Numbered from the stretch's first letter, positions 12,168-50,305 are shown. The stretch: DNA of 64,000 nt from Candidatus Coatesbacteria bacterium (GCA_030602715.1 JAUVZD010000001.1:364557-428556), one strand, 5' to 3'. The notes: a model not told the origin generated them from the letters alone. A program made the numbers and translations.

Positions 12168-15041
12168 CTAATAATTCCACCCCACGAAGAACCGCACCGG
12201 GGTGTCCTTGGAGATGGAATGAAAGTCGGTCTTTTTGGCGACATCCAGCCTGAAGACGAAGACATTGAACAGTCCCCAGCGAAGGCTGAAGCCAAAGTCC
12301 CCCCTCACTCCCCCCAGCTTCTCGTCCCAGGCTTCACCTATATCAAAGAATAAAGCCCCGTGGAAGCTCCCCAGATTTGCTTTCCCAATCGGCGTATCTA
12401 TGACCATTTCTTTCAGAATGGGGAAACGTAGTTCCTGGTTGAATATAAACAACTTGGTGCCCATAAAATCACGATATTTATAGCCCCGCATGGAGAGGCT
12501 CCCCCCCATAGCCAAGGGAAGGACATCAGGGCCTCCACTGGCCCGAAAGATGAGCCTCAGGGCATAACAGCTCTGCTGGCTTATGCGGACATATCGGCGC
12601 AGGTCGCAGGAAAGGAGGTAATACTGGAACTCCTGTCGGGTCAAGTCGCCGGTCTGGCTTACGGTCAGATTATAGCGGGAGCCGTCAATGGGACCCACCG
12701 AGTTCCACAGGGAAGTATCTTTGACAAAGCTGACATAGTGCGAAATTGCCACACCACCCTTCAAAGGCTCATCAAAGAAAGACCGCCTGAAGCCGTAGAG
12801 GTTTACTCCAGATTCAATACGATAGAAACGGGAGAGGGGATAGGAAAGGAGGACGGTTGCACCGTAACGCCTTTCGCTGTAGAGGTAGCCCAGGTTCCAA
12901 TCGTAGTAGTCGTCCAGGTAATGAAAGCCCCCCAAGCCGAAGTTGAGACGGTGGGCGAGATTATAGTAATTGACCCCTATATTCATTCGGCTGAAGAAGT
13001 CGCCTACGGTCTCTGCGGAGTTGGAGAAGCTCAAAGTGATCATATTATCGTTAAGCATGTCGGTAAAACTGAAGATAGCCCCAGCCCCACCTCCGAAGTC
13101 CGGGGAATATGCCACCTCAGCCTGGATGATATCCAGGGAATAGTCGGCGCTATACTTTTCGTGGGGATAATCGTCCGCCATATCCCCCTCCGCTTCCTCC
13201 TGGCCATCTCCTTCCTCTAAAATGACCTCCACCGAGCCGATGAAAGCAGAGCGATAGGGCATGGTCAAAATAGAGATGTTTCCCTCACTATAGCAGTCAA
13301 ATATCAGCTCCTCTCCATCCGTGGTCAGGGTGGGCTCAAATGCTCCGGTGGTGAAGTTGGTATTCTGCCAGAGCTCGCCCGTGGAAAGGTCAAGAGTGTA
13401 AATATTGAACCGCCCACTGCGGTCGGAGGCGAAGAGAACCTTACCACCTTCAAGAGGACGGGGATGGATATCCCGGCAGTGCTCATAGGTCAAACGCTCC
13501 ACCTCCCCAAGCCCACCTTCTTCGGTCAACTTCAACAGATACAGACTGCTCTCGTCCTCCCCCTCATCCGCCGAGCGGTCGGAGGAGAAGAGGACGTTTT
13601 CTCCATCGGGCAGGACGGTTGGGTCCCGGTCTGCATATCGGTCGTCGGTCAGAGCGGTCAGCTCCCCGTTAGCTCTATCCAGCAGATAGATGTCCATCTG
13701 CCCGGAGAGGTCCTGCCCGGCAAAGACCAGTTTATCCCCCCGGGGAAAGAAGGCGGGCGAAAAGATGCCTATCAATTTTTCAAAGCGGTAGGTGGCGACC
13801 ACCTCCCGGCTGTTCAAATCCATTATGTTGAGCACATCGTTTGCCCCGCTCTTGGAGACGAAGGCAAGCTCGCCTGACGGGCTCACCGCCAGGGAACTGC
13901 GGAAGATATGCAGGGACTCAAACTCAGGCGTCCGCTGACCCTTGACGATACACTCCACATCGCTCAAATAGATGCTTCTTACACCATGGTCACTTACCTC
14001 CAGACAACCCATATAGATATTGGTGTAGCCACTGCGATTGGAGACGAAGACCAGGTAATCTCTGCCGCCCAGGGTGAAGGCTTCAGCTGAGACATCAACA
14101 CTCTCGCTCTTCGCCAGGGGGAGAGCGGAGGTGGTCGGCTCATCGTACTCCACCACCAGGGGAAGATACTCCTCCCGCAGTTTCCCCTCCCAGCCCCGAG
14201 AGAGCGTCCCCACATCCACGCCCAGAGTAAACTCCATCACCTTGTTGAAGCTCTCATCCACCCAGATATTGTCCAGCATAGCCGGTATCTTATCCTCCCC
14301 GTAGGTCTCGGCGATGTATCCCACCAGGCTCTGCCCTTCCTTATAAACCAGATATGAGCGGTAAGAATGATGAATATCCTCCAGGGGGGCAAAGTAGCCG
14401 TTAAGAACCGCATCACCAAGCACCATATCCGCTTCGCTGTCCCACCGGGATGAGTAATACTCGGCGATTCCCTCCATATACCACAACGGAGGGATGGGAT
14501 AGTAGAACTTGTCCCGGGAGCGCATCACAAACTTTATCTTGTTGAGGGTGAAGTAGTGGACTACTTCGTGGGTGAGGGTGGCACGGAAGCGGGAAAGGGA
14601 GCCGTCAAAGGGCATCAACACCCGACCCTTGAAGAACTCGGTCACCCCTGCGACGGATTCGGGAAGGATGTAGGGGATGACATTGGTCTCCTGGAAGGGT
14701 TGATGGCTGGAGTAGATGATAAGGGGGATTTTGGATGTAAGGGTGTGGTTGAGATGGACCGAGAGGGTGGGGATTATGGTCTCCAGCATCTCGGCGGCTT
14801 CCAGAGCGAGCCACTTCTCCTGGGGGTAGAAATATATGTCAGCGGAAGGAGTGTGCATGACCTGCCAATCCAGGTCCAGGTATTGCACCTTGTTTTTTCC
14901 GAAATAGTAGTATCCACAAGACACCTCTGGCAACACCAGGAGAGAGAGAGCTACCACGATAAACAAACAAACTCCCAACTTTGCCGTTGCTCTCCCAGTA
15001 TATCGGTGAACAGGAGTTCTATCTTCGGTAAAAATACGCAA
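12168..15041 (-). CDS. Omp85-family outer membrane protein with N-terminal gluzincin (peptidase MA-like) domain and PD40/WD40-like propeller
   Basis: Signal peptide, YFGKNKVQY, HEVVH followed by LWYMEGIAEY, PD40-like repeats, C-terminal barrel with LAMGGSLSMRGY and terminal FFVGWNY. Confidence 0.85.
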   Translation of the reverse strand: MRIFTEDRTPVHRYTGRATAKLGVCLFIVVALSLLVLPEVSCGYYYFGKNKVQYLDLDWQVMHTPSADIYFYPQEKWLALEAAEMLETIIPTLSVHLNHTLTSKIPLIIYSSHQPFQETNVIPYILPESVAGVTEFFKGRVLMPFDGSLSRFRATLTHEVVHYFTLNKIKFVMRSRDKFYYPIPPLWYMEGIAEYYSSRWDSEADMVLGDAVLNGYFAPLEDIHHSYRSYLVYKEGQSLVGYIAETYGEDKIPAMLDNIWVDESFNKVMEFTLGVDVGTLSRGWEGKLREEYLPLVVEYDEPTTSALPLAKSESVDVSAEAFTLGGRDYLVFVSNRSGYTNIYMGCLEVSDHGVRSIYLSDVECIVKGQRTPEFESLHIFRSSLAVSPSGELAFVSKSGANDVLNIMDLNSREVVATYRFEKLIGIFSPAFFPRGDKLVFAGQDLSGQMDIYLLDRANGELTALTDDRYADRDPTVLPDGENVLFSSDRSADEGEDESSLYLLKLTEEGGLGEVERLTYEHCRDIHPRPLEGGKVLFASDRSGRFNIYTLDLSTGELWQNTNFTTGAFEPTLTTDGEELIFDCYSEGNISILTMPYRSAFIGSVEVILEEGDGQEEAEGDMADDYPHEKYSADYSLDIIQAEVAYSPDFGGGAGAIFSFTDMLNDNMITLSFSNSAETVGDFFSRMNIGVNYYNLAHRLNFGLGGFHYLDDYYDWNLGYLYSERRYGATVLLSYPLSRFYRIESGVNLYGFRRSFFDEPLKGGVAISHYVSFVKDTSLWNSVGPIDGSRYNLTVSQTGDLTRQEFQYYLLSCDLRRYVRISQQSCYALRLIFRASGGPDVLPLAMGGSLSMRGYKYRDFMGTKLFIFNQELRFPILKEMVIDTPIGKANLGSFHGALFFDIGEAWDEKLGGVRGDFGFSLRWGLFNVFVFRLDVAKKTDFHSISKDTPVRFFVGWNY

Positions 15042-15246: not shown

Positions 15247-16026
15247 CTATCCCTTCCTGCCCAGAGCATAGAACCAGGGTAGATATACCATCCATTCGCC
15301 GGCATCAAGCGCTTGACGCTCCTCCCGCTTCAATCGCTGTAGCTTCCCTTGCGACACAATATCCTTCCAAGCTCGCTCTCTGAACCACCAGGAGAGCTCA
15401 AAATCGCCCTCATCGCCCTCCCCCAGCACCTGTCCCTGAACTCCCACCTCGGTCTTCAAGCCAGCCTTTACAAACAACTTGCGCAGTCGCCTTCCCAGAA
15501 ATGGGTCCAGCCCCTCCCGCCGTAAACTCTCCAGGTGTAGTTCTGCTATCTCCTTAAGGGGCCAGCAGATGAATCCACCGTAATCCGGTTCTGCACAGGC
15601 TACCACCCAACCTCCCCGGCGAGTAACCCGAGCCATCTCCTGCACCATATCGTCGGGTGTCTGCGACCAGAAGAGTGTGAGATGGCACACAGCCGCCGAG
15701 AAGGTCTCATCCTCAAAGGGGAGAGCCTCACCCGAAGCTAAGCAGTGCAGAATCCCTTCATCTCCACTGTGTACGGCTTTCGCCCGGCGGAGAAGCTCCT
15801 CATCCCTATCCACCGCCACCAGCGAACCGGAGGAACGATGTGCCAGCTCAGCGCTTATCACTCCGCTTCCCGCACCCACCTCTAGAACAGGCGAAATACG
15901 GGCGATATTTATGCGCCGATACAAAAAATTGCGAGTGGCGTAGCTGAACTCAGCCTGCCTGCGCAGATAATATTCCCATTCCTCAGCACTCAAGCCTGCT
16001 ATACGACGCTCCCCTTCACCCATCAT
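15247..16026 (-). CDS. Class I SAM-dependent methyltransferase
   Basis: VLEVGAGSG, VAVDRD, LPFEDETF, MARVTRRGG, AEPDYGG. Starts 5 nt after the radical SAM stop. Confidence 0.88.
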   Translation of the reverse strand: MMGEGERRIAGLSAEEWEYYLRRQAEFSYATRNFLYRRINIARISPVLEVGAGSGVISAELAHRSSGSLVAVDRDEELLRRAKAVHSGDEGILHCLASGEALPFEDETFSAAVCHLTLFWSQTPDDMVQEMARVTRRGGWVVACAEPDYGGFICWPLKEIAELHLESLRREGLDPFLGRRLRKLFVKAGLKTEVGVQGQVLGEGDEGDFELSWWFRERAWKDIVSQGKLQRLKREERQALDAGEWMVYLPWFYALGRKG

Positions 16027-16031
16027 TGAGC

Positions 16032-17396
16032 CTAAGCGGTTGAGACGCTCTCCATGCAGTATAGAACCTCCTCCTCGGAGACCGCCAGGGGACAGCCCCC
16101 ACCGCAGACCTCCAACTCCGGGCAGTCATGGCACTTCTCCATCAGGAACTTCCGCTCCCGCAAATCCTCCAATAAGGTATGATGCCAGATTTTTTCCCAA
16201 TCATCCTTGAGGATATTACCCACCGATTGATAGTAGCTCTGGCAGGGGAGCACCTCTCCATCCGGCTCTACGCACATATTATACTTCCCCGCAGTGCATT
16301 GCTTTATACCCAGCTCCAGTTCAAGGGGGTTGAAAAGGCAATATTGGGTGGGGGTATACCAGATAAAGCGCAGGTTGTTGCGCTGGCAAGCGGAGAGAAG
16401 CCTCGGCAGAACTTCGCTCAATTCATCCTCGGATATCGCAAAGGGGTAGCCCTTGCCGTGCCCGGAGCAGATGATGCCGTTTGCGGCGATCACCTCCAAC
16501 CCCAGGGAAGCAAGAAAGTCCACCGTCTTTTCAATAGTCGGCGAGTTATGCTTGGTCAGTGTAGTGTTGGTAATAGTATAGACCGGGGTGTTGATGGCGT
16601 TCTTTATGCTGGCTACGGTCTCCCGCCAGGCACCTTTCTCTCCCACCATCAGGTTGTGGATGGACTCATCATGGCTCTCCAGGGTAATCTGAAAATGGTC
16701 TATTCCGGCAAGCACCAGTCCATCAAGATAGTCCTTATCGGCTAGTTTGCGCCCGTTGGTCAGAAGCCCGGTAACCACCCCCAAATCCTCGGCATACTCC
16801 ACAAGCTCCCGCAAATCCTCCCGCACTGTAGCCTCACCGCCGGTAAAGCAGATATGGGGAATTCCCGCCTCCCAGCAACGCTTGATGACCTTCTTCCACT
16901 GCTCGGTAGAGAACTCCTCAACCTGGCGGGGCTTGCCGACATAACAGTGGGGGCACATATTCTGACAGCGGTAGGTCAAAGCCAGGTCCATGCGGTAGGG
17001 GGCTATGGTCTCGGAGGTAAAGGGCTCAATGCGTTCAACATCCAGGAAGGTTATGGGACAGACATCGTCGGTTGTGGTGAGGATATCCATCATCTCCTTA
17101 ATCCTCTCCAAATCATCCACAACCTGCTTTTTGCTCACCCGATAGCGCCGTTTCATGCTCTTGATTATCTCTTCGTCGTCGGCGTCAGCCATAATCATCC
17201 TGGCATACTCCGTGCCGGTGGGATTGAGATGGATAATCTTGCTGGCGTTCAGTATCAGCGTGCCCGCGCCCCCCTCCTCCACCCGCAGGTGGAGCCGAAA
17301 GTTGCCGAACTCGTTATCTATTCGCTTCTCATACAAGCCCGTTTCCAGTGGCTTCTGTATGGTGAAGAATCCCTTTATTTTCCCTTTCACTCCCAT
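16032..17396 (-). CDS. Radical SAM/SPASM peptide-maturase-like protein with N-terminal PqqD/RRE-like domain
   Basis: CQNMCPHC, FTGGEAT, LLTNG. SPASM motifs CTAGKYNMCVEPDGEVLPC and CHDCPELEVCGGGC. N-terminal LNPTG..YARMI..DDEEII..RRYRV..VVDDL resembles PqqD. Confidence 0.9.
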   Translation of the reverse strand: MGVKGKIKGFFTIQKPLETGLYEKRIDNEFGNFRLHLRVEEGGAGTLILNASKIIHLNPTGTEYARMIMADADDEEIIKSMKRRYRVSKKQVVDDLERIKEMMDILTTTDDVCPITFLDVERIEPFTSETIAPYRMDLALTYRCQNMCPHCYVGKPRQVEEFSTEQWKKVIKRCWEAGIPHICFTGGEATVREDLRELVEYAEDLGVVTGLLTNGRKLADKDYLDGLVLAGIDHFQITLESHDESIHNLMVGEKGAWRETVASIKNAINTPVYTITNTTLTKHNSPTIEKTVDFLASLGLEVIAANGIICSGHGKGYPFAISEDELSEVLPRLLSACQRNNLRFIWYTPTQYCLFNPLELELGIKQCTAGKYNMCVEPDGEVLPCQSYYQSVGNILKDDWEKIWHHTLLEDLRERKFLMEKCHDCPELEVCGGGCPLAVSEEEVLYCMESVSTA

Positions 17397-17421
17397 AGTC
17401 CTTACCCCTTGAAGAAACCGG

Positions 17422-17613
17422 TCATACCTGTTGCTGTTCCAGAGCTATCACCACCAACTCGTCATCCTCTTGCAGGTGGAAACCCACCTTCGGGTTCAGA
17501 TAAAGCTTACCCTCCCTTATCACCTCAACCGGTATAGCCCGATGGTTATGCATAAGGATCCCAAAAACCAAACAACATAACTGACGAGAATTACAGTGGT
17601 TATCTTTCTCCAA
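17422..17613 (-). pseudogene. Remnant of a TrkA-C/RCK C-terminal domain
   Basis: AIPVEVIREGKLYLNPKVGFHLQEDDELVVIA matches the RCK-C pattern. No N-terminal domains are present. Confidence 0.45.
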
Positions 17614-17855
17614 TTACGACGCAAAATACAATATATCCAGAATAAAATCCTGGTAGCACTATTCATATCCATCCCTCAAACTATATTCTTATTTATGAAA
17701 AGTATATCACGAATTTAGTCCAACTGTAAAGGGAATAAATGCCCCTTTAATCCCCTCCTATTCCGCAAAAAAGACTGATTTTGCCCTAAAGTTGGATTTT
17801 ATTCCATATCACTTACCGAGTAGCCTGGGGTCAGCTTATGTATATGATAAATTAA

Positions 17856-17881
17856 AGGGTGTCCTTATGCAAGGACACCCT
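17856..17881 (-). terminator. Intrinsic terminator downstream of the Cys-tail membrane protein gene
   Basis: Perfect 11-bp stem AGGGTGTCCTT/AAGGACACCCT with a 4-nt loop, followed by TTAATTT on the minus strand, 15 nt after the stop. Confidence 0.75.
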
Positions 17882-17896
17882 AAAAAATACTCAACC

Positions 17897-19534
17897 CTAT
17901 CTTCCACCACCGGCGCAGGCACAGGCACATCCGGCGCAAGCGCAAGCGCAGGCGCAAGAACTACCCCCACCACTACTTCTTCCACCCCCGCCCTTGTAAG
18001 ATGATACCGGCGGGGGATTGGTCTTGGCGGTAACTCCACCGGTGAAACCGGTTACGCTTCCCACTATGTTCTTTGAGAAATTCTGCATCTTACCGATGAC
18101 CCCGGCGGCGAAGGAAGAACCGGGAAGTGAGGGCACGGTTATCTTCCCCCCGCCCGCACCCCCCCTACCCCCACCAACTGTGCCGGGCCACCAGCCCGGC
18201 GCATAGACCGTTCTGCCGACGAAGATGGTGCGGGTGTTCTCCTCAAAGTCATCGTCCATTATAGTCCACTCTACATTATCCTCCCAACGAGCCATCGCCA
18301 GCTCCGGAGTATCCGCACTCTTCACCGTCTCCCATGCCTTCTTGACGATGGATTGGTAATACTCAATCGTCTCCCTTCGGCTGAAGCCCTTCATCCGCTT
18401 GTTGACATTCTTGATCATATTGATCAGCACCTTGCGCAGTCTGACTTCGCTCAAATTACCTTTTTTGGTAATCGCCTCCATAAATTCCACCTCATACTCA
18501 CGCGGTTTAGCATCCGATGGTATAGATAGCTTCTTCAGCTTCAGGGGGTCCTCCGACTTCACCGAAAGAGAGCGTTTCTTCAACAGTCCGAACAGTATCA
18601 TGGTCAATATCTTATTTAGAGGAAGCTCCAGGACCAGGGCGGCTTCAGGGGCGGTCAAGCCCCGCTTTATGCCCACACCCTCTATTGAGGCTTTGGCGGG
18701 CATGTATTTCATCCTCCTCATCCTATTGCCGACGACGGCGAGGAAGATGATTATGCCGATTGTCCCGAAGGGAATCAGACAGGGCAGGAAGGTGAAGATA
18801 AAACCCAGCAGACCACTTAAGAACTTCTCAAAGCCCGAAGGCGGTGAGCTTATCGGACCGGTCACATAGGCTCTGGGGAAGGAGACTCCAAAAAAATACT
18901 GGGTGTAGGGGTTGGCGGAAGGATTATGCCAGGTATAGACTACTCGGTCATCTAGAAATCCCATAGCGGTGGGTGGGCTCATATCTTCGCCGGTGTGGTA
19001 GCGGGGCTCCTCGGAGTTCAAGCCCGGCGGAAAGTGGATGTGCACGGTCAGGTCGGTGGTGCCGTGGGCGTAATCACTGCCGAACCAGGTGGTGGCGAAG
19101 ACCACGCTGGCGTAGTTCTGGTCGCTTTCGTCGCCGTAGACCATATTGTAGTTGCGCCCCATCACCGTCAGGGTCTTGGTCTCCCCGGGCATTATCTGCT
19201 GGCTACCGCTCAGGTGCACCTCAATGCCGATGTCTATGTATTCCGAGACCCGGATATCGTATAACTGCTCACCGTCAATCCAGGCTTCACAGGAGTCGAG
19301 ATCGTAATCATTTGAGGGAAAGCCGACATCCACCACATCTATGGGGTCGGCGAATGTGTCGTTACTGAATGTAAATTGATACTGGATGACCAGGGAGCAG
19401 TCCGGGTCAATGAATACATCCACCACCTCTTTGGGCATCGCGAAGTAATAATATTGCCCGTAAGCGACGGCACCCGAAAACAACACCGCCAAAAAAGCCA
19501 CCCAGAGGAAATGTCTCATCGCTTTCTCCATCAT
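17897..19534 (-). CDS. Membrane protein with Gly/Ser linker and C-terminal Cys-Ala repeat tail (CACACACAGCACACAGGGR)
   Basis: Signal peptide, DUF2207-like beta ectodomain, TM LLGFIFTFLPCLIPFGTIGIIIFLAVVG, cytoplasmic domain KRGLTAPEAALVL, 7-Cys tail. GGAGG RBS. Confidence 0.9.
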   Translation of the reverse strand: MMEKAMRHFLWVAFLAVLFSGAVAYGQYYYFAMPKEVVDVFIDPDCSLVIQYQFTFSNDTFADPIDVVDVGFPSNDYDLDSCEAWIDGEQLYDIRVSEYIDIGIEVHLSGSQQIMPGETKTLTVMGRNYNMVYGDESDQNYASVVFATTWFGSDYAHGTTDLTVHIHFPPGLNSEEPRYHTGEDMSPPTAMGFLDDRVVYTWHNPSANPYTQYFFGVSFPRAYVTGPISSPPSGFEKFLSGLLGFIFTFLPCLIPFGTIGIIIFLAVVGNRMRRMKYMPAKASIEGVGIKRGLTAPEAALVLELPLNKILTMILFGLLKKRSLSVKSEDPLKLKKLSIPSDAKPREYEVEFMEAITKKGNLSEVRLRKVLINMIKNVNKRMKGFSRRETIEYYQSIVKKAWETVKSADTPELAMARWEDNVEWTIMDDDFEENTRTIFVGRTVYAPGWWPGTVGGGRGGAGGGKITVPSLPGSSFAAGVIGKMQNFSKNIVGSVTGFTGGVTAKTNPPPVSSYKGGGGRSSGGGSSCACACACAGCACACAGGGR

Positions 19535-19562
19535 CTATCCTCCATTTTACGATTTTCCCTCA

Positions 19563-19757
19563 TCATCTGTGGACTATTCTATAGATGCGACCGCAATATG
19601 AACACCTGAATCTATACATGGACACTTGCTCGTTATCCTCCCCAAGCGGCGCACCGCAGGAGTAGCAATGCATCCGCTCCCTCCCCAACCCACGATACCT
19701 CTCCTCCAACCCTCCCCGCAAAAGTTTTAGCTCTCCCCTATGACCGTCTCCCTCCAT
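19563..19757 (-). CDS. Small zinc-ribbon protein
   Basis: CYSCGAPL...CSYCG. Starts 2 nt after the upstream stop. Confidence 0.7.
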   Translation of the reverse strand: MEGDGHRGELKLLRGGLEERYRGLGRERMHCYSCGAPLGEDNEQVSMYRFRCSYCGRIYRIVHR

Positions 19758-19759
19758 CC

Positions 19760-20086
19760 CTAATCCTTCTCATCGTCCACATAGACCTGATAACTAGCCC
19801 CGCAGAAAGGGCAACTGACCAACGCCAGGTTACCCTCTATGACCAGATCATCCCTCTTAATCGGCGCCCCGCACTTTTTGCATTCTATCTCCTCAAGTTT
19901 GATCTTGCCACCAAGCTGTATCTCCTCCCTGGAGCCTGAGGTCGCTGTGGGCTCGCCCCTTCCCTCCTTCCTACCCGAGGCCAAGGACTTGATTATGGCA
20001 ATCACCACGACGACTAAAGCCGCCAAGAAGATAAGCACGAAGATGAAACCAAGCCCCATCATACCACTCATACCCATATGACCCAT
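19760..20086 (-). CDS. Membrane-anchored zinc-ribbon protein
   Basis: One TM, then CKKCGAPI...CPFCGASYQV. Start placed at ATG 20086 after GGAGG; the alternative is GTG 20116. Confidence 0.82.
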   Translation of the reverse strand: MGHMGMSGMMGLGFIFVLIFLAALVVVVIAIIKSLASGRKEGRGEPTATSGSREEIQLGGKIKLEEIECKKCGAPIKRDDLVIEGNLALVSCPFCGASYQVYVDDEKD

Positions 20087-20109
20087 AACCCAATCCCTCC
20101 AAGGAGCAT

Positions 20110-20496
20110 CTACCACTTGGGTTCTTCGGATATCTGATATACCGAACCGCAGTAGGGGCAGTGCACGGTGATAGCCCCGCCTTCAACCGAGATGGATTTC
20201 TTATCTACAGGACCACCGCACTGTTCACACTTCAGCTTCTCCATCTCCAAATCACCGGTAAGTTCAATCTGCTGGGTGATCTCTATCTTCTGTTCCTTTC
20301 GCTTCTGCCACCAAGCGAATCCGATGATTGCTAATCCCACTACGATGAGGGCCACACCCACACCACACCACAATCCCAACTGCCCGCCGGCTTGTGCTTC
20401 CTCACTTGTGGAGGCTATCACAAACAGAACCCCAAAAAGAATCATCAAGATGGCAACGATAATACCGACAATTCTCAGTCCCCGCAAACCGTTCAC
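20110..20496 (-). CDS. Two-TM zinc-ribbon protein
   Basis: Two TMs, then CEQCGGPV...CPYCGSVYQISEEPKW. Its C-terminal domain is paralogous to that of the next gene. Confidence 0.85.
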   Translation of the reverse strand: MNGLRGLRIVGIIVAILMILFGVLFVIASTSEEAQAGGQLGLWCGVGVALIVVGLAIIGFAWWQKRKEQKIEITQQIELTGDLEMEKLKCEQCGGPVDKKSISVEGGAITVHCPYCGSVYQISEEPKW

Positions 20497-20635: not shown

Positions 20636-21595
20636 TTATTTTTTGCGATACTTCTCCACAATGATGGAGAGCAAGTCTATTGCGTCGGGCATGGTCAGGT
20701 TCTTGCGCCCAACTTTTACCTTGTTCCCCCGAATCTCAATGACCAGTTGTCGCAACTCCTCCTCAACCTTCTCTACAACAACTTCTTCCGGTCTCTCCTC
20801 AACCGGGGGAGCCTCCTTTGCCGGCGCTTCCTCTGCAACAGGGGGAATACCCTCAATCTTTGGTCCCTCCACCTCTATCGGCGTCGCCTCCTTTGCAGGA
20901 GCCGGTTCCACATGTCGCCCAATACCCACCTCCGCCAGTATCTCCTCCGGTTCGGTTTTTGGTTCCTCAACCTTCGGCTCCACAACCTCTGCCAGCGCTT
21001 TCTCCTCCCAGGCACTCGGTGCCAGCCCCTCCAACCCTAGCTCCTCCAGCGAGGGCAAGCCAAAACCCTCCTCCTCACCCTCGGCTGTAACTGGAACTCC
21101 CTCGGCAGGAACCTCGCCGACAGGCGGTGCAGCGGGTAATTCCTCGGGGAAGACCACAGGAGCCCTCTCCTCAGCGGCAACTCCTGGAGGTGGCGGGGGA
21201 ATCTCAGCCCCAATATCCTCAACCGGAGGCGGTGGAGGAACTTCGCCCACATCCTCCCCCACACCTACTTCCTCAAAGACGGGTATCCCCTCATCCCTAA
21301 TCGGCGGAATTTCCGGCACGACCAACTCCTCCTCCCCTACCGGGGTGGGTTCCACCTCCTCCGGAATATGGTCCACCAGGCTGTCATCCGGGATTGGCAG
21401 CGGAGCGACCTCACTCACCGCAGGCTCCCCCAAAGGAACACCCAAATCCTCAAGAACCGCTTCTCCCTCGCTCTTCTTCTCCTCAGCAAGCCCGAAGTCG
21501 CCGTACCTCAGGCTTTCCCTTAGACGCCTAGCCCTCTCCTCATTACGCCTTTTTATCGCCTCTATGGGGTCCTCTTTATCCAGTTCATCAACCAT
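20636..21595 (-). CDS. Acidic Pro/Glu/Val-rich low-complexity protein
   Basis: Helical-looking N-terminus (DPIEAIKRRNEERARRLRESL), long P/E/V/A-rich middle, compact basic C-terminal domain. RBS ahead of ATG 21595. Confidence 0.75.
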   Translation of the reverse strand: MVDELDKEDPIEAIKRRNEERARRLRESLRYGDFGLAEEKKSEGEAVLEDLGVPLGEPAVSEVAPLPIPDDSLVDHIPEEVEPTPVGEEELVVPEIPPIRDEGIPVFEEVGVGEDVGEVPPPPPVEDIGAEIPPPPPGVAAEERAPVVFPEELPAAPPVGEVPAEGVPVTAEGEEEGFGLPSLEELGLEGLAPSAWEEKALAEVVEPKVEEPKTEPEEILAEVGIGRHVEPAPAKEATPIEVEGPKIEGIPPVAEEAPAKEAPPVEERPEEVVVEKVEEELRQLVIEIRGNKVKVGRKNLTMPDAIDLLSIIVEKYRKK

Positions 21596-21713
21596 AAAAA
21601 CACTTCCCTTGCTGATTATTCCGAAAAGTGCCGAATTGTCAAAAGTCAACCACTTCCCACTATTAACTAATAATAACTTATTTCTTTAAAAATGTCAAGT
21701 GATTTCGGTTATC

Positions 21714-48461: not shown

Positions 48462-49499
48462 ATGGGTTCCTTCATTTGTGCCATTTCAGAAAGAGACTGG
48501 AAAATATCAAGAATTAAAGGTATTTATGGCAATAAAATGGGTAAACTTAGTAGAGATGGGTCATACCGTGAATTTCCACTTACAACAAAATACTCTATTA
48601 TAAGGGACCTTGTTGGAATGCAAAAAGGAGACAAGATCTTTTTTCATGTTATAGGCGATAGCAGCGTCCATGGTATCTACATTGTTCGTGAGGAACCCTT
48701 TTATGACACTTCAAAAATTTGGAAGGATGACCACGAAATATTTCCATATCGATTTCTCTTCAAGCCTCACCCTAAATACAAACATCTTTGCAAACAAGAT
48801 GCGAGTATTTCAGTTATTGATTTCTATGAAGTAATCGAACAGCGTATTATTTGGTCTTTGGCCACTCTTGAAAACGAAAGGAATATTGAAGCGCGTAGCG
48901 TTCGTAAAATTGAAGACGGGAAAGAGACAAAGGAGATCCTGAAGCTTCTTCATAGAGATTTCATCATTAACCGAATTAGCACTAATATCAAATTTTTTCC
49001 TATTAAATTACCCACCAATGCTAAACCCCTCAGAGATTGCATTCAAGATATTGGTCGATTTGAGAATTCCATCAAAGCATTGTTTATGTATAAAATTGGG
49101 CAAAATGAACCATCTATTGTCAATATTTTTGGAGCAGTATCTGACTTTATGAATGAAGTATTTATTGCCCAAACTACTAGAAAAAGCATCGACATCCTTT
49201 GCATTCAAAATAATAAACCTAATTCAAGAAGATATATCATTTGCGAGTTTAAAACTGACAAATGCGATATAAAAAGCCTTAGTCAGCTCCTTTATTATAC
49301 GGATCTGTTTAAAAGAAGGGATTTTGTAGACATAGCTAATGATGTAATATTTGGGTGCCTGATCGGTAAGCGTTTTGATCCTGAAGTCATAGAATTTTCC
49401 AAGAAAAGAAATTCTTATGGCATAAACGGTAGTATTTTCCTAATTGAATATACACCAATTGAAAAAGGAACGGATGCAGCTTTCAGGAGGATAGCCTAA
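48462..49499 (+). CDS. EVE/PUA-like domain fused to a PD-(D/E)XK (NucS-like) nuclease
   Basis: N-terminal DW..S...G.YG...GDKIFFH...GIY.V...PFYD...IW....FPYR. C-terminal E...SIDILC...ICEFK...QL..Y. Confidence 0.65.
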   Translation: MGSFICAISERDWKISRIKGIYGNKMGKLSRDGSYREFPLTTKYSIIRDLVGMQKGDKIFFHVIGDSSVHGIYIVREEPFYDTSKIWKDDHEIFPYRFLFKPHPKYKHLCKQDASISVIDFYEVIEQRIIWSLATLENERNIEARSVRKIEDGKETKEILKLLHRDFIINRISTNIKFFPIKLPTNAKPLRDCIQDIGRFENSIKALFMYKIGQNEPSIVNIFGAVSDFMNEVFIAQTTRKSIDILCIQNNKPNSRRYIICEFKTDKCDIKSLSQLLYYTDLFKRRDFVDIANDVIFGCLIGKRFDPEVIEFSKKRNSYGINGSIFLIEYTPIEKGTDAAFRRIA

Positions 49500-50305
49500 T
49501 GCAGAGATTAGGACCTGATAAGGTTTATTTCAAAGAAGGTTCAATCGTAATTTACAACGATGACTTTCTAAGTACAAAGTGCATAGATAAAGGTTGCATT
49601 GATTTGATTGTAACTTCCCCTCCTTACAATGTAGATATAAAGTATGGTTCATATAGCGATGAAATTCCCTATAAAGATTATTTAAAATTTACTTCAGATT
49701 GGCTTACCAAATGCTTTCAATTGTCAAAGGATGACGGAAGGTTTTGCCTAAACATACCATTAGATAAAAACAAAGGAGGACAGCAAAGTGTATGCGCTGA
49801 TATAACAACAATAGCAAAAAAGGTTGGATGGAAATATCACTCTACAATAATTTGGAATGAACAAAACATCTCAAGGAGGACTGCATGGGGTTCTTGGCTT
49901 AGTGCCTCAGCTCCCTATGTAATAGCCCCCGTTGAAGTAATCGTAATACTATATAAAAAGAACTGGAAAAAAACCAGTGGGACCAAACTGTCTGATATCA
50001 CAAAAGAGGAATTTGTTGAGTATACAAATGGAGTTTGGAATTTTAGTGGAGAGAGTAGGAAAAAAATAGGACATCCAGCACCATATCCCATAGAATTACC
50101 AAGAAGATGTATAAAGTTATTCAGCTACACCGGTGATACAATTCTTGATCCCTTTCTTGGAAGTGGAACAACTCTTATTGCTTGTTTGAACACAAAAAGA
50201 AAAGGAATTGGTATAGAAATAGATAAAAAATATTGTGAACTGGCTAAACAAAGACTTATCGCAGAAGGAAAAGTTTTTCAGTTAAGACTTGAATCTACCA
50301 AATAG
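49499..50305 (+). CDS. Amino DNA methyltransferase, beta class
   Basis: VTSPPYN, RTAWGSWLSAS, GHPAPYP, LDPFLGSGTT. Start overlaps the upstream stop. Confidence 0.93.
   Translation: MQRLGPDKVYFKEGSIVIYNDDFLSTKCIDKGCIDLIVTSPPYNVDIKYGSYSDEIPYKDYLKFTSDWLTKCFQLSKDDGRFCLNIPLDKNKGGQQSVCADITTIAKKVGWKYHSTIIWNEQNISRRTAWGSWLSASAPYVIAPVEVIVILYKKNWKKTSGTKLSDITKEEFVEYTNGVWNFSGESRKKIGHPAPYPIELPRRCIKLFSYTGDTILDPFLGSGTTLIACLNTKRKGIGIEIDKKYCELAKQRLIAEGKVFQLRLESTK

Follow-up and report, generated by a model that had tools for sequence, protein, structure and literature searches.

RiPP recognition element (RRE)-bearing radical S-adenosylmethionine (SAM)/SPASM enzymes are makers of small peptide natural products (RiPPs, ribosomally synthesised and post-translationally modified peptides) and of peptide-derived cofactors. 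The locus analysed here raises the question of whether such an enzyme may also work on the end of a large membrane protein. It occupies positions 15247-20496 of a 64,000-nt stretch of DNA from a Candidatus Coatesbacteria bacterium (GCA_030602715.1 JAUVZD010000001.1:364557-428556), referred to below as the window, and includes the gene of a 545-residue membrane protein with an alternating Cys-Ala tail and the gene of a radical SAM/SPASM enzyme. We suggest from the sequence comparisons, with a probability of roughly 0.6, that the enzyme treats the invariant Cys-Ala tail as a RiPP-type core peptide, and the peptide-maturation machinery appears to have been committed here to the C-terminal end of a membrane protein that is large and conserved.

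Open reading frame (ORF) calling placed seven ORFs within 15247-20496, all on the minus strand. The genes, motifs and coordinates listed in a preliminary description of the locus were every one recovered by ORF calls, Pfam scans and a terminator scan. The features are as follows, with the evidence in brackets; labels beginning with L denote the loci used for comparison.

17897-19534, minus strand: tail protein of 545 residues, ending in GGGSSCACACACAGCACACAGGGR (ORF, AlphaFold, hydropathy)
18008-18046, minus strand: conserved linear motif FTGGVTAKTNPPP, residues 497-509 of the tail protein (alignment of tail homologues)
17900-17956, minus strand: Cys-Ala core CACACACAGCACACAGGGR, residues 527-545, with the stop codon at 17897-17899 (invariance among homologues)
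16032-17396, minus strand: radical SAM/SPASM enzyme of 454 residues (Pfam, invariant Cys, AlphaFold, fold matches)
15247-16026, minus strand: class I SAM-dependent methyltransferase of 259 residues, beginning 5 nt past the radical SAM stop codon
20110-20496, minus strand: zinc (Zn)-ribbon membrane protein of 128 residues with two transmembrane (TM) helices (ORF, TM prediction, homologues, alignment)
19760-20116, minus strand: Zn-ribbon paralogue of 118 residues with one TM helix and without the EEPKW end (ORF, Pfam, paralogue comparison)
19563-19757, minus strand: small soluble Zn-ribbon paralogue of 64 residues (ORF, Pfam, paralogue comparison)
17856-17881, minus strand: terminator-like hairpin 3' of the tail gene (11-bp stem with six G-C pairs, T-rich tail)
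17422-17613, minus strand: ORF of 63 residues, remnant of an RCK-domain K+ channel gene, outside the system (Pfam, intact gene in L165)
20636-21649, minus strand: acidic Pro/Glu-rich protein of 337 residues (ORF; homologues at the same position in L001, L002 and L161)

The first part of the answer comes from the conservation of the tail, which reads …GGGGRSSGGGSSCACACACAGCACACAGGGR in the window protein. The homologue search returned 2957 relatives at E <= 0.001, and the tail ends were compared in 120 listed homologues of these 2957, which belong to several phyla and are 35-94% identical to the query. Among these listed matches the last 17 residues, CACACAGCACACAGGGR, are identical in 120/120, and the full 19-residue core given above is the commonest form, present in nearly all of them. 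The window and 80 genome loci (selected as stated below) supplied 81 distinct DNA versions of the tail, in which TGC and TGT are both used at every Cys position, all four codons occur at each Ala and Gly position, and six Arg codons and all three stop codons are found. Since the synonymous codons vary and the peptide is fixed, selection acts on the amino-acid sequence and on its ending exactly after the Arg. The Cys-Ala tail is far beyond chance, and the freezing of 17-21 residues of Cys, Ala, Gly and Arg across phyla suggests a precise chemical product. An origin of the CA repeat as a DNA microsatellite artefact is ruled out by the same free variation of codons under a constant peptide.

The second part is the linkage of the tail gene to the enzyme gene. 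In the forward test, the tail alignment was compared with one genome per GTDB species, which gave more than 600 pattern matches and 314 confirmed relatives, and the best 80 of these 314 were kept. The best 80 loci belong mostly to Chloroflexota/Anaerolineae, including the cultured Leptolinea sp. HRD-7, Bellilinea caldifistulae and Anaerolinea thermophila; the other taxa among them are Zixibacteria, Edwardsbacteria, Cloacimonadota and “delta proteobacterium” metagenome-assembled genomes (MAGs). According to tblastn, the gene for the Zn-ribbon protein with two TM helices lies directly upstream of the tail gene in 77/80 loci, and the radical SAM gene is present in 72/80, nearly always directly 3' of the tail gene; the gene order Zn-ribbon, tail protein, radical SAM is kept in 72-77 of the 80 species genomes. 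Typically 31 bp (the median) separate the tail stop codon from the projected start of the radical SAM gene, and in 69 of 71 loci the gap does not exceed 300 bp; a gap of the median length is too short for another gene. Clustering of the ORFs showed that the only families conserved across the loci are the tail protein, the radical SAM family (including a pseudo-enzyme paralogue described below), the Zn-ribbon protein and the methyltransferase, and the usual Anaerolineae order is Zn-ribbon, tail protein, radical SAM, pseudo-radical SAM, methyltransferase. The complete Coatesbacteria genome CP070633.1 (L161) repeats the order of the window: acidic protein, Zn-ribbon protein (ending in EEEPQW), tail protein, radical SAM enzyme, methyltransferase.

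The reverse test started from the enzyme: a metagenome scan with the radical SAM alignment provided 80 loci, of which the 50 with >=2 kb of upstream sequence were scored. A tail-protein homologue is present in 39/50 and lies directly upstream in 34, and several short radical-SAM contigs start inside a CA tail. The co-occurrence of tail proteins with this radical SAM family, predicted in the preliminary description, is thus positive in both directions (72/80 and 39/50). In the Edwardsbacteria MAG GCA_040755715.1 the tail gene is on contig JBFLXN010000022 (L019), while contig JBFLXN010000119 (L162) carries a cluster of radical SAM, a 381-residue protein, Zn-ribbon and methyltransferase genes; the families therefore co-occur in one genome also when they are unlinked.

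The absence of a separate small precursor gene, proposed from the window sequence, was confirmed on a wider scale. No small CA-tail precursor ORF was found in the 160 loci of the two tests, in which every complete CA-tail ORF (not cut by a contig end) belongs to the tail family and is 517-774 residues long; where a radical-SAM locus has no tail gene, the only Cys-repeat ORFs of >=20 residues found are tails truncated at contig ends. Other scaffolds bearing the tail were sought with phmmer, using its 31 residues alone against 1.8 billion representative proteins; the 0 matches presumably reflect the low-complexity correction and say nothing about such scaffolds. In viral contigs, a degenerate DNA pattern of the tail had 0 matches. 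At L161:8416-9990 (CP070633.1), a full-length gene for a CA-tail protein of 546 residues is absent from the called genes of the record, and the tail family may be under-annotated in high-GC genomes.

The third part is the enzyme itself, which has the general traits of RRE-dependent radical SAM/SPASM maturases: a CxxxCxxC motif, about seven SPASM Cys and a PqqD-like RRE. Pfam recognises Radical_SAM (5.7e-22) and SPASM (1.8e-11) in its 454 residues. In the alignment of the enzyme family, C144, C148 and C151 of the CxxxCxxC motif (residues 144-151) are invariant, as are C367, C385, C422, C425, C431 and C435 of the SPASM Cys between residues 353 and 448, and C353 is nearly so. The AlphaFold model (predicted template-modelling score, pTM, 0.81) comprises an RRE-like unit, a barrel and a SPASM region, the N-terminal RRE-like unit (residues 20-108) consisting of strands followed by three helices, and PF05402 (PqqD) is precomputed for many of the listed radical SAM homologues. 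The best matches in the PDB by sequence and by fold are the thioether-forming RiPP maturase SkfB (E = 3e-19 by fold), SuiB and PqqE, followed by BlsE, GDGT-MAS and anSME, and the fold alignments to SkfB and SuiB span 395-450 columns. The enzyme falls below every curated NCBIfam cut-off: the best scores are those of PqqE (TIGR02109, 123 vs 381 bits) and NirJ2 (120 vs 500), and the sactisynthase models AlbA (70 vs 850), SkfB (90 vs 300) and StsB (70 vs 625) give scores below their cut-offs as well, as do MftC (TIGR03962, 83 vs 265), the ACGX-repeat model (TIGR04340, 72 vs 400) and TrsS (52 vs 490). Since all these scores are far below the cut-offs, the sequence does not predict the type of reaction. 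As for the PQQ (pyrroloquinoline quinone) pathway, a search for pqqA/B/C neighbours found no pqq genes in the window or in the loci.

The radical SAM family is split into two groups. The active group (62 ORFs) has the CxxxCxxC motif and a median of eight Cys in the last 110 residues; the second group (46 ORFs of about 385 residues) keeps the PqqD-like N-terminus and has lost CxxxCxxC and all SPASM Cys. The gene of the second group is located between the active enzyme and the methyltransferase, for example at L051:13104-14264 (Leptolinea sp. HRD-7) and in 45 further loci of L001-L080, and the paralogue comparison found none in the window. Most likely this cluster-less paralogue is a pseudo-enzyme that serves as a chaperone or scaffold.

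The fourth part is the architecture of the tail protein, which would bring the tail and the enzyme together. The AlphaFold model of its 545 residues has a mean predicted local distance difference test score (pLDDT) of 81 and starts with a signal helix, followed by a confident beta-sandwich (residues 31-220) and a TM helix at about residues 234-275; past the membrane there are a confident helical domain (residues ~290-440) and two amphipathic helices (residues 472-505), and from residue 511 onward the Gly/Ser linker and the Cys-Ala tail, core included, are disordered (pLDDT <50). The hydropathy profile places the positive-inside sequence NRMRRMK directly after the TM segment, and this sequence together with the signal peptide puts the ectodomain outside and the Cys-Ala tail in the cytoplasm, where the model places it within reach of the radical SAM enzyme. 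The large ectodomain and the cytosolic domain are also well conserved in the alignment. Ahead of the tail, F497, T505, N506, P507 and P509 of the motif FTxxVTxxTNPxP are invariant, and the Gly/Ser linker between this motif and the first Cys of the core is variable (11-28 residues, median 15). We propose that FTxxVTxxTNPxP could be a leader-like docking site for the RRE domain.

Scans of the whole protein against Pfam and NCBIfam matched no family, and the Cys-Ala tail scanned alone against both matched none either. By fold (Foldseek), the ectodomain resembles ribophorin I of the oligosaccharyltransferase and the N-domain of M1 aminopeptidases. DUF2207/ribophorin-I-like proteins share with the tail protein an extracytoplasmic beta-sandwich, one TM helix, a cytoplasmic helical region and a Gly-rich end, but DUF2207 is characterised neither by a Cys-Ala tail nor by a linked radical SAM enzyme. 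The Pfam DUF2207 N-domain is touched by one of 29 tail-family members (E = 0.0086), and DUF2207 (PF09972) gave no match to the window protein even at E <= 10.

The natural variation of the core is narrow. Among 238 distinct tails, the core (CA)4-G-(CA)3-GGGR accounts for 169, (CA)5-G-(CA)3-GGGR for 49, (CA)3-G-(CA)3-GGGR for 11 and (CA)6-GGGR for two (L138 and L146). A few longer cores have three blocks, for example CVCACAHCACACACVSCACACAHGGAR (L119, L125, L136, L140 and L148); they sit on distant tail proteins, 28-35% identical to that of the window, which contain motifs related to FTxxVTxxTNPxP and are still encoded directly upstream of the same radical SAM family. The (CA)6 cores likewise belong to distant tail proteins, and such three-block and (CA)6 variants could reveal the positions that the enzyme requires. 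Tandem duplicates of the tail gene occur in L009, L137 and L165, and the second tail protein of the last locus (L165:9826-11331) ends in CDCACACAGCACACAGGGR, where the first Ala is replaced by Asp, a rare departure from the invariant core.

Taken as a RiPP-type pair, the tail and the enzyme give the most economical account of the locus, since the recognition motif, the flexible linker, the Cys-rich core at the C-terminus and the adjoining RRE-bearing enzyme mirror the organisation of a RiPP precursor. Judging from this sequence pattern, the Cys-Ala tail is probably the substrate of the enzyme. The nature of the chemistry is more speculative: thioether formation on the tail would be a tentative choice by analogy, made because SkfB is the nearest characterised enzyme and Cys is the sole reactive side chain in the core; other Cys-centred reactions, or the assembly of a metal or cluster on the tail, may apply instead. 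We suppose that the PqqD-like RRE would dock on FTxxVTxxTNPxP, about 15 residues before the core, and that the radical SAM site would take a hydrogen off the backbone, at a carbon of Ala or Gly. This carbon could then be attacked by a Cys thiolate positioned at a SPASM auxiliary cluster, which would give sactionine-type thioether bridges that staple the two CA blocks together as a hairpin, and the methyltransferase might afterwards cap the leftover thiols or the terminal carboxylate. In many genomes the cluster-less paralogue, having kept its RRE, could assist as a chaperone or scaffold.

Given the invariant core, the cytoplasmic location of the tail and the lack of any conserved protease or exporter, the product would stay on the protein and have a cellular role like that of PQQ or mycofactocin, rather than that of a secreted antibiotic. 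Remaining on the membrane protein, it may act with the Zn-ribbon protein of two TM helices as a structural, redox or metal-binding prosthetic group. That RiPP machinery turns a (Cys-Ala)n tail into a cross-linked or metal-bearing prosthetic group, held on a membrane protein at the cytoplasmic face, is a conceivable outcome to which we would give somewhat less than even odds.

Several observations weigh against the proposal that the tail is a RiPP-type core. The Pfam match of the enzyme to PqqD is marginal (23.7 bits vs a cut-off of 23.4). The best NCBIfam scores belong to PqqE, NirJ and AhbD-type models, not to sactipeptide synthases. A few tail loci have no radical SAM enzyme nearby, several of the loci scored in this way being contigs that stop just past the tail gene, and in 11/50 radical-SAM loci, usually with the methyltransferase present, the 2.4-6 kb upstream of the enzyme contain no tail gene. 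Seven Cys lined up along one face of a beta-strand would also suit plain metal or Fe-S binding with no covalent modification. Finally, the tail and radical SAM genes of the window are parted by a hairpin and a promoter-like site.

The last point deserves a closer look, because the preliminary description had raised a terminator and about 500 bp of spacer as a caveat. Both are present: the hairpin at 17881-17856 (11-bp stem, T-rich tail) and a promoter-like site at 17730-17701 were found, and neither terminator-like nor promoter-like sites are more frequent in the region than in shuffled sequence. The remnant of an RCK gene noticed in the spacer is real as well. The 63-residue ORF matches Castor_Poll_mid (1e-5) and TrkA_C (0.003) in Pfam, and it is the 3' remnant of a channel gene that is intact in L165, a relative about 70% identical at the DNA level, where a 354-residue RCK/TrkA_N K+ channel gene lies at the position of the spacer. 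The order there is Zn-ribbon, tail protein, second tail protein, RCK channel gene, radical SAM, methyltransferase and a Peptidase_MA_2/PD40/Omp85 protein. In the 98.5%-identical strain L164, a further 800 bp containing a CBM96-like gene are inserted at window position 17650 (L164:455-1252). The spacer is accordingly found in three states: channel gene plus second tail gene (L165:9826-12551), 63-residue remnant (window 17400-17900) and CBM96-like gene (L164). It represents a lineage-specific indel hotspot, the scar of an inserted channel gene, and is therefore no evidence against a functional link; as an objection, the caveat falls away. The idea that the terminator and the 500-bp spacer mark unrelated genes is ruled out by these lineage-specific indels and by the absence of the spacer in almost all other genomes.

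The alternative that survives best is that the tail is an unmodified scaffold for a metal or an Fe-S cluster, either metallothionein-like or as a cluster ligand, and that the enzyme and the methyltransferase build, insert or tailor the cofactor that it carries. The seven invariant Cys, spaced i, i+2 with tiny residues between them, would be well suited for this, the cofactor-type PqqE, NirJ2 and AhbD are among the top NCBIfam scores of the enzyme, the cluster-less paralogue that is common among the loci may be a scaffold, and the hosts are anaerobes. We nevertheless consider it unlikely, because the enzyme bears an RRE, a domain tied so far to peptide recognition, and its best structural matches are peptide maturases; moreover, simple metal-binding tails usually vary, whereas Ala and Gly are here fixed across phyla, and the conserved genes of the module include neither a metal transporter nor a chaperone for metals.

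To weigh the second alternative, one has to turn to the Zn-ribbon proteins. The three of the window have paired CxxC motifs with weak zinc-ribbon matches in Pfam/NCBIfam and are mutually paralogous, the 118-residue protein being 36% identical to the 128-residue one. In the latter, two TM helices are combined with a cytoplasmic CxxC…CxxC ribbon, whose Cys pairs are invariant in the alignment, and with the C-terminus …EEPKW-COOH (window 20110-20127). The terminal EEPxW is conserved in the orthologues L001-L161, as EEPQW in Coatesbacteria and EEPTW in the variant-tail lineages, and is, next to the Cys-Ala tail, the other invariant motif at a cytoplasmic C-terminus in the module. The preliminary description had proposed the Zn-ribbon genes together for a test of neighbourhood conservation; the EEPKW-ending gene is a conserved partner (77/80 loci) but the other two are not, and the 64-residue protein is lineage-specific, as no counterpart was found in the 80 genome loci.

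It could accordingly be supposed that the enzyme acts elsewhere, on the EEPxW end (with a Trp cross-link as in streptide) or on a non-peptide, and that the tail is independent of it. The Zn-ribbon gene is linked as tightly as the tail gene (77/80) and its product has a C-terminal motif of its own, the fold match ranking second is SuiB, which cross-links Lys and Trp, and many loci encode two RRE-bearing proteins. In the Edwardsbacteria MAG the Zn-ribbon gene travels with the enzyme cluster, which fits either reading. The Lys of EEPKW, however, is not conserved (other lineages have Q or T in its place), and it is the tail gene, not the Zn-ribbon gene, that the radical SAM gene immediately follows; such a substrate has in our opinion a slim chance.

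Finally, that the membrane protein is a giant leader whose modified core of 17-21 residues is cleaved and released as a RiPP product or signal would agree with the position of the core at the extreme C-terminus behind a flexible Gly/Ser linker and with general RiPP logic, large leader proteins being known in borosins and as nitrile-hydratase-like leaders, but it is very improbable given that no leader protease and no exporter or transporter is conserved across the 160 loci, that hydropathy and AlphaFold put the tail in the cytoplasm, that the core is invariant across phyla, unlike in secreted RiPPs, and that the conserved ectodomain and cytosolic domain are no mere carrier.

If the tail is indeed a RiPP-type core, how does the module relate to known systems? 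The closest parallels are the sactipeptide/ranthipeptide-type maturases SkfB, AlbA and CteB, which like the window enzyme consist of an RRE, a radical SAM domain and a Cys-rich auxiliary-cluster domain, act on a Cys-rich core and are encoded directly after the substrate gene. Their substrates, however, are peptides of 30-60 residues, whereas the candidate substrate here is the C-terminus of a 545-residue membrane protein; the module also differs in having no leader protease or exporter and a core that is invariant across phyla. With PqqE/PqqD/PqqA and MftC/MftB/MftA it shares an RRE-dependent radical SAM/SPASM enzyme working near a C-terminus and an invariant core, and PqqE and MftC types are among the highest NCBIfam and PDB neighbours of the enzyme; the PQQ and mycofactocin cores are nevertheless Glu…Tyr or Val-Tyr, while that of the module is composed of Cys, Ala and Gly and carried on a membrane protein, and none of the PqqB/C/F and Mft accessory genes is present in the module.

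In the ACGX-repeat system, a radical SAM/SPASM enzyme of TIGR04340 is paired with a short Cys-repeat peptide. It resembles the module in combining such an enzyme with a substrate of short, repeated, Cys-containing units, but its substrates are small peptides and the repeat unit is another one. Borosins of the OphMA type carry out autocatalytic N-methylation, with the core within a larger protein. Bufferins modified by MNIO enzymes are described as Cys-modified, metal-binding, exported precursors of protein size (PMC12452194). Borosins and bufferins are similar to the module in applying RiPP-style chemistry to a core inside a larger protein or protein-sized precursor, and their enzyme families are unrelated to the one considered here.

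Neither Pfam nor NCBIfam (release of June 2026) has a model for the tail protein or one that assigns the enzyme, and no paper in the library searched deals with the tail motif or with its pairing with a radical SAM enzyme. This suggests that the module is undescribed so far. Its probable mechanism would class it with peptide maturation by RRE-dependent radical SAM enzymes; new with respect to the known kind would be the full-length membrane-protein substrate, the frozen core and the missing release machinery. At least 314 species-level genomes, cultured Anaerolineae included, contain the module. Its product could be a thioether ladder, a thiolate platform or a cofactor, and would serve anaerobes in a housekeeping capacity, not as an antibiotic. 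Should the proposal be correct, a protein-derived cofactor or structural element of a new class would be widespread among anaerobic bacteria, and a full-length membrane protein would for the first time be seen to mature through radical-SAM RiPP chemistry. Enzymologists would gain a testable substrate-enzyme pair and microbiologists a handle on an unknown membrane complex.

The contribution of the methyltransferase is less uniform. Pfam assigns its 259 residues to Methyltransf_11 (1.7e-17), the best NCBIfam match is the DVU_1556 family (NF045667) with 47 bits vs a cut-off of 155, and the PDB neighbours (METTL27 and the RiPP methyltransferase LahSB among them) are generic, being similar over the Rossmann core only. 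It is present in 52/80 tail loci and in 23/35 loci. The linkage to the tail and enzyme genes, which the preliminary description proposed to test, is therefore frequent (about 65%, from the 52/80) but not universal.

The acidic protein of 337 residues, encoded upstream of the Zn-ribbon genes, has a conserved N-terminus (…EDPIEAIKRRNEERARRL…) and a conserved C-terminus. Homologues lie at the same position in Zixibacteria (L001, L002) and Coatesbacteria (L161), and in L165 this place is taken by a gene of 299 residues; in the other 78 genome loci, nearly all from Anaerolineae, tblastn did not detect it. This protein may be a lineage-specific accessory.

On the other side of the module, 3' of the methyltransferase, the window encodes a protein of 957 residues (12168-15041) with Peptidase_MA_2, PD40 repeats and a C-terminal Omp85 barrel, which is an unusual fusion; Peptidase_MA_2/PD40/Omp85 proteins follow the methyltransferase likewise in L089, L164 and L165. 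Elsewhere in the window, a low-GC island (48462-50305; GC 0.34 vs about 0.55 elsewhere) encodes an N6/N4 DNA methylase and a 345-residue protein without a Pfam family, and likely represents an acquired restriction-modification unit. Another low-GC stretch of the window, at 34-36 kb, contains the gene of a tetratricopeptide repeat (TPR) protein.

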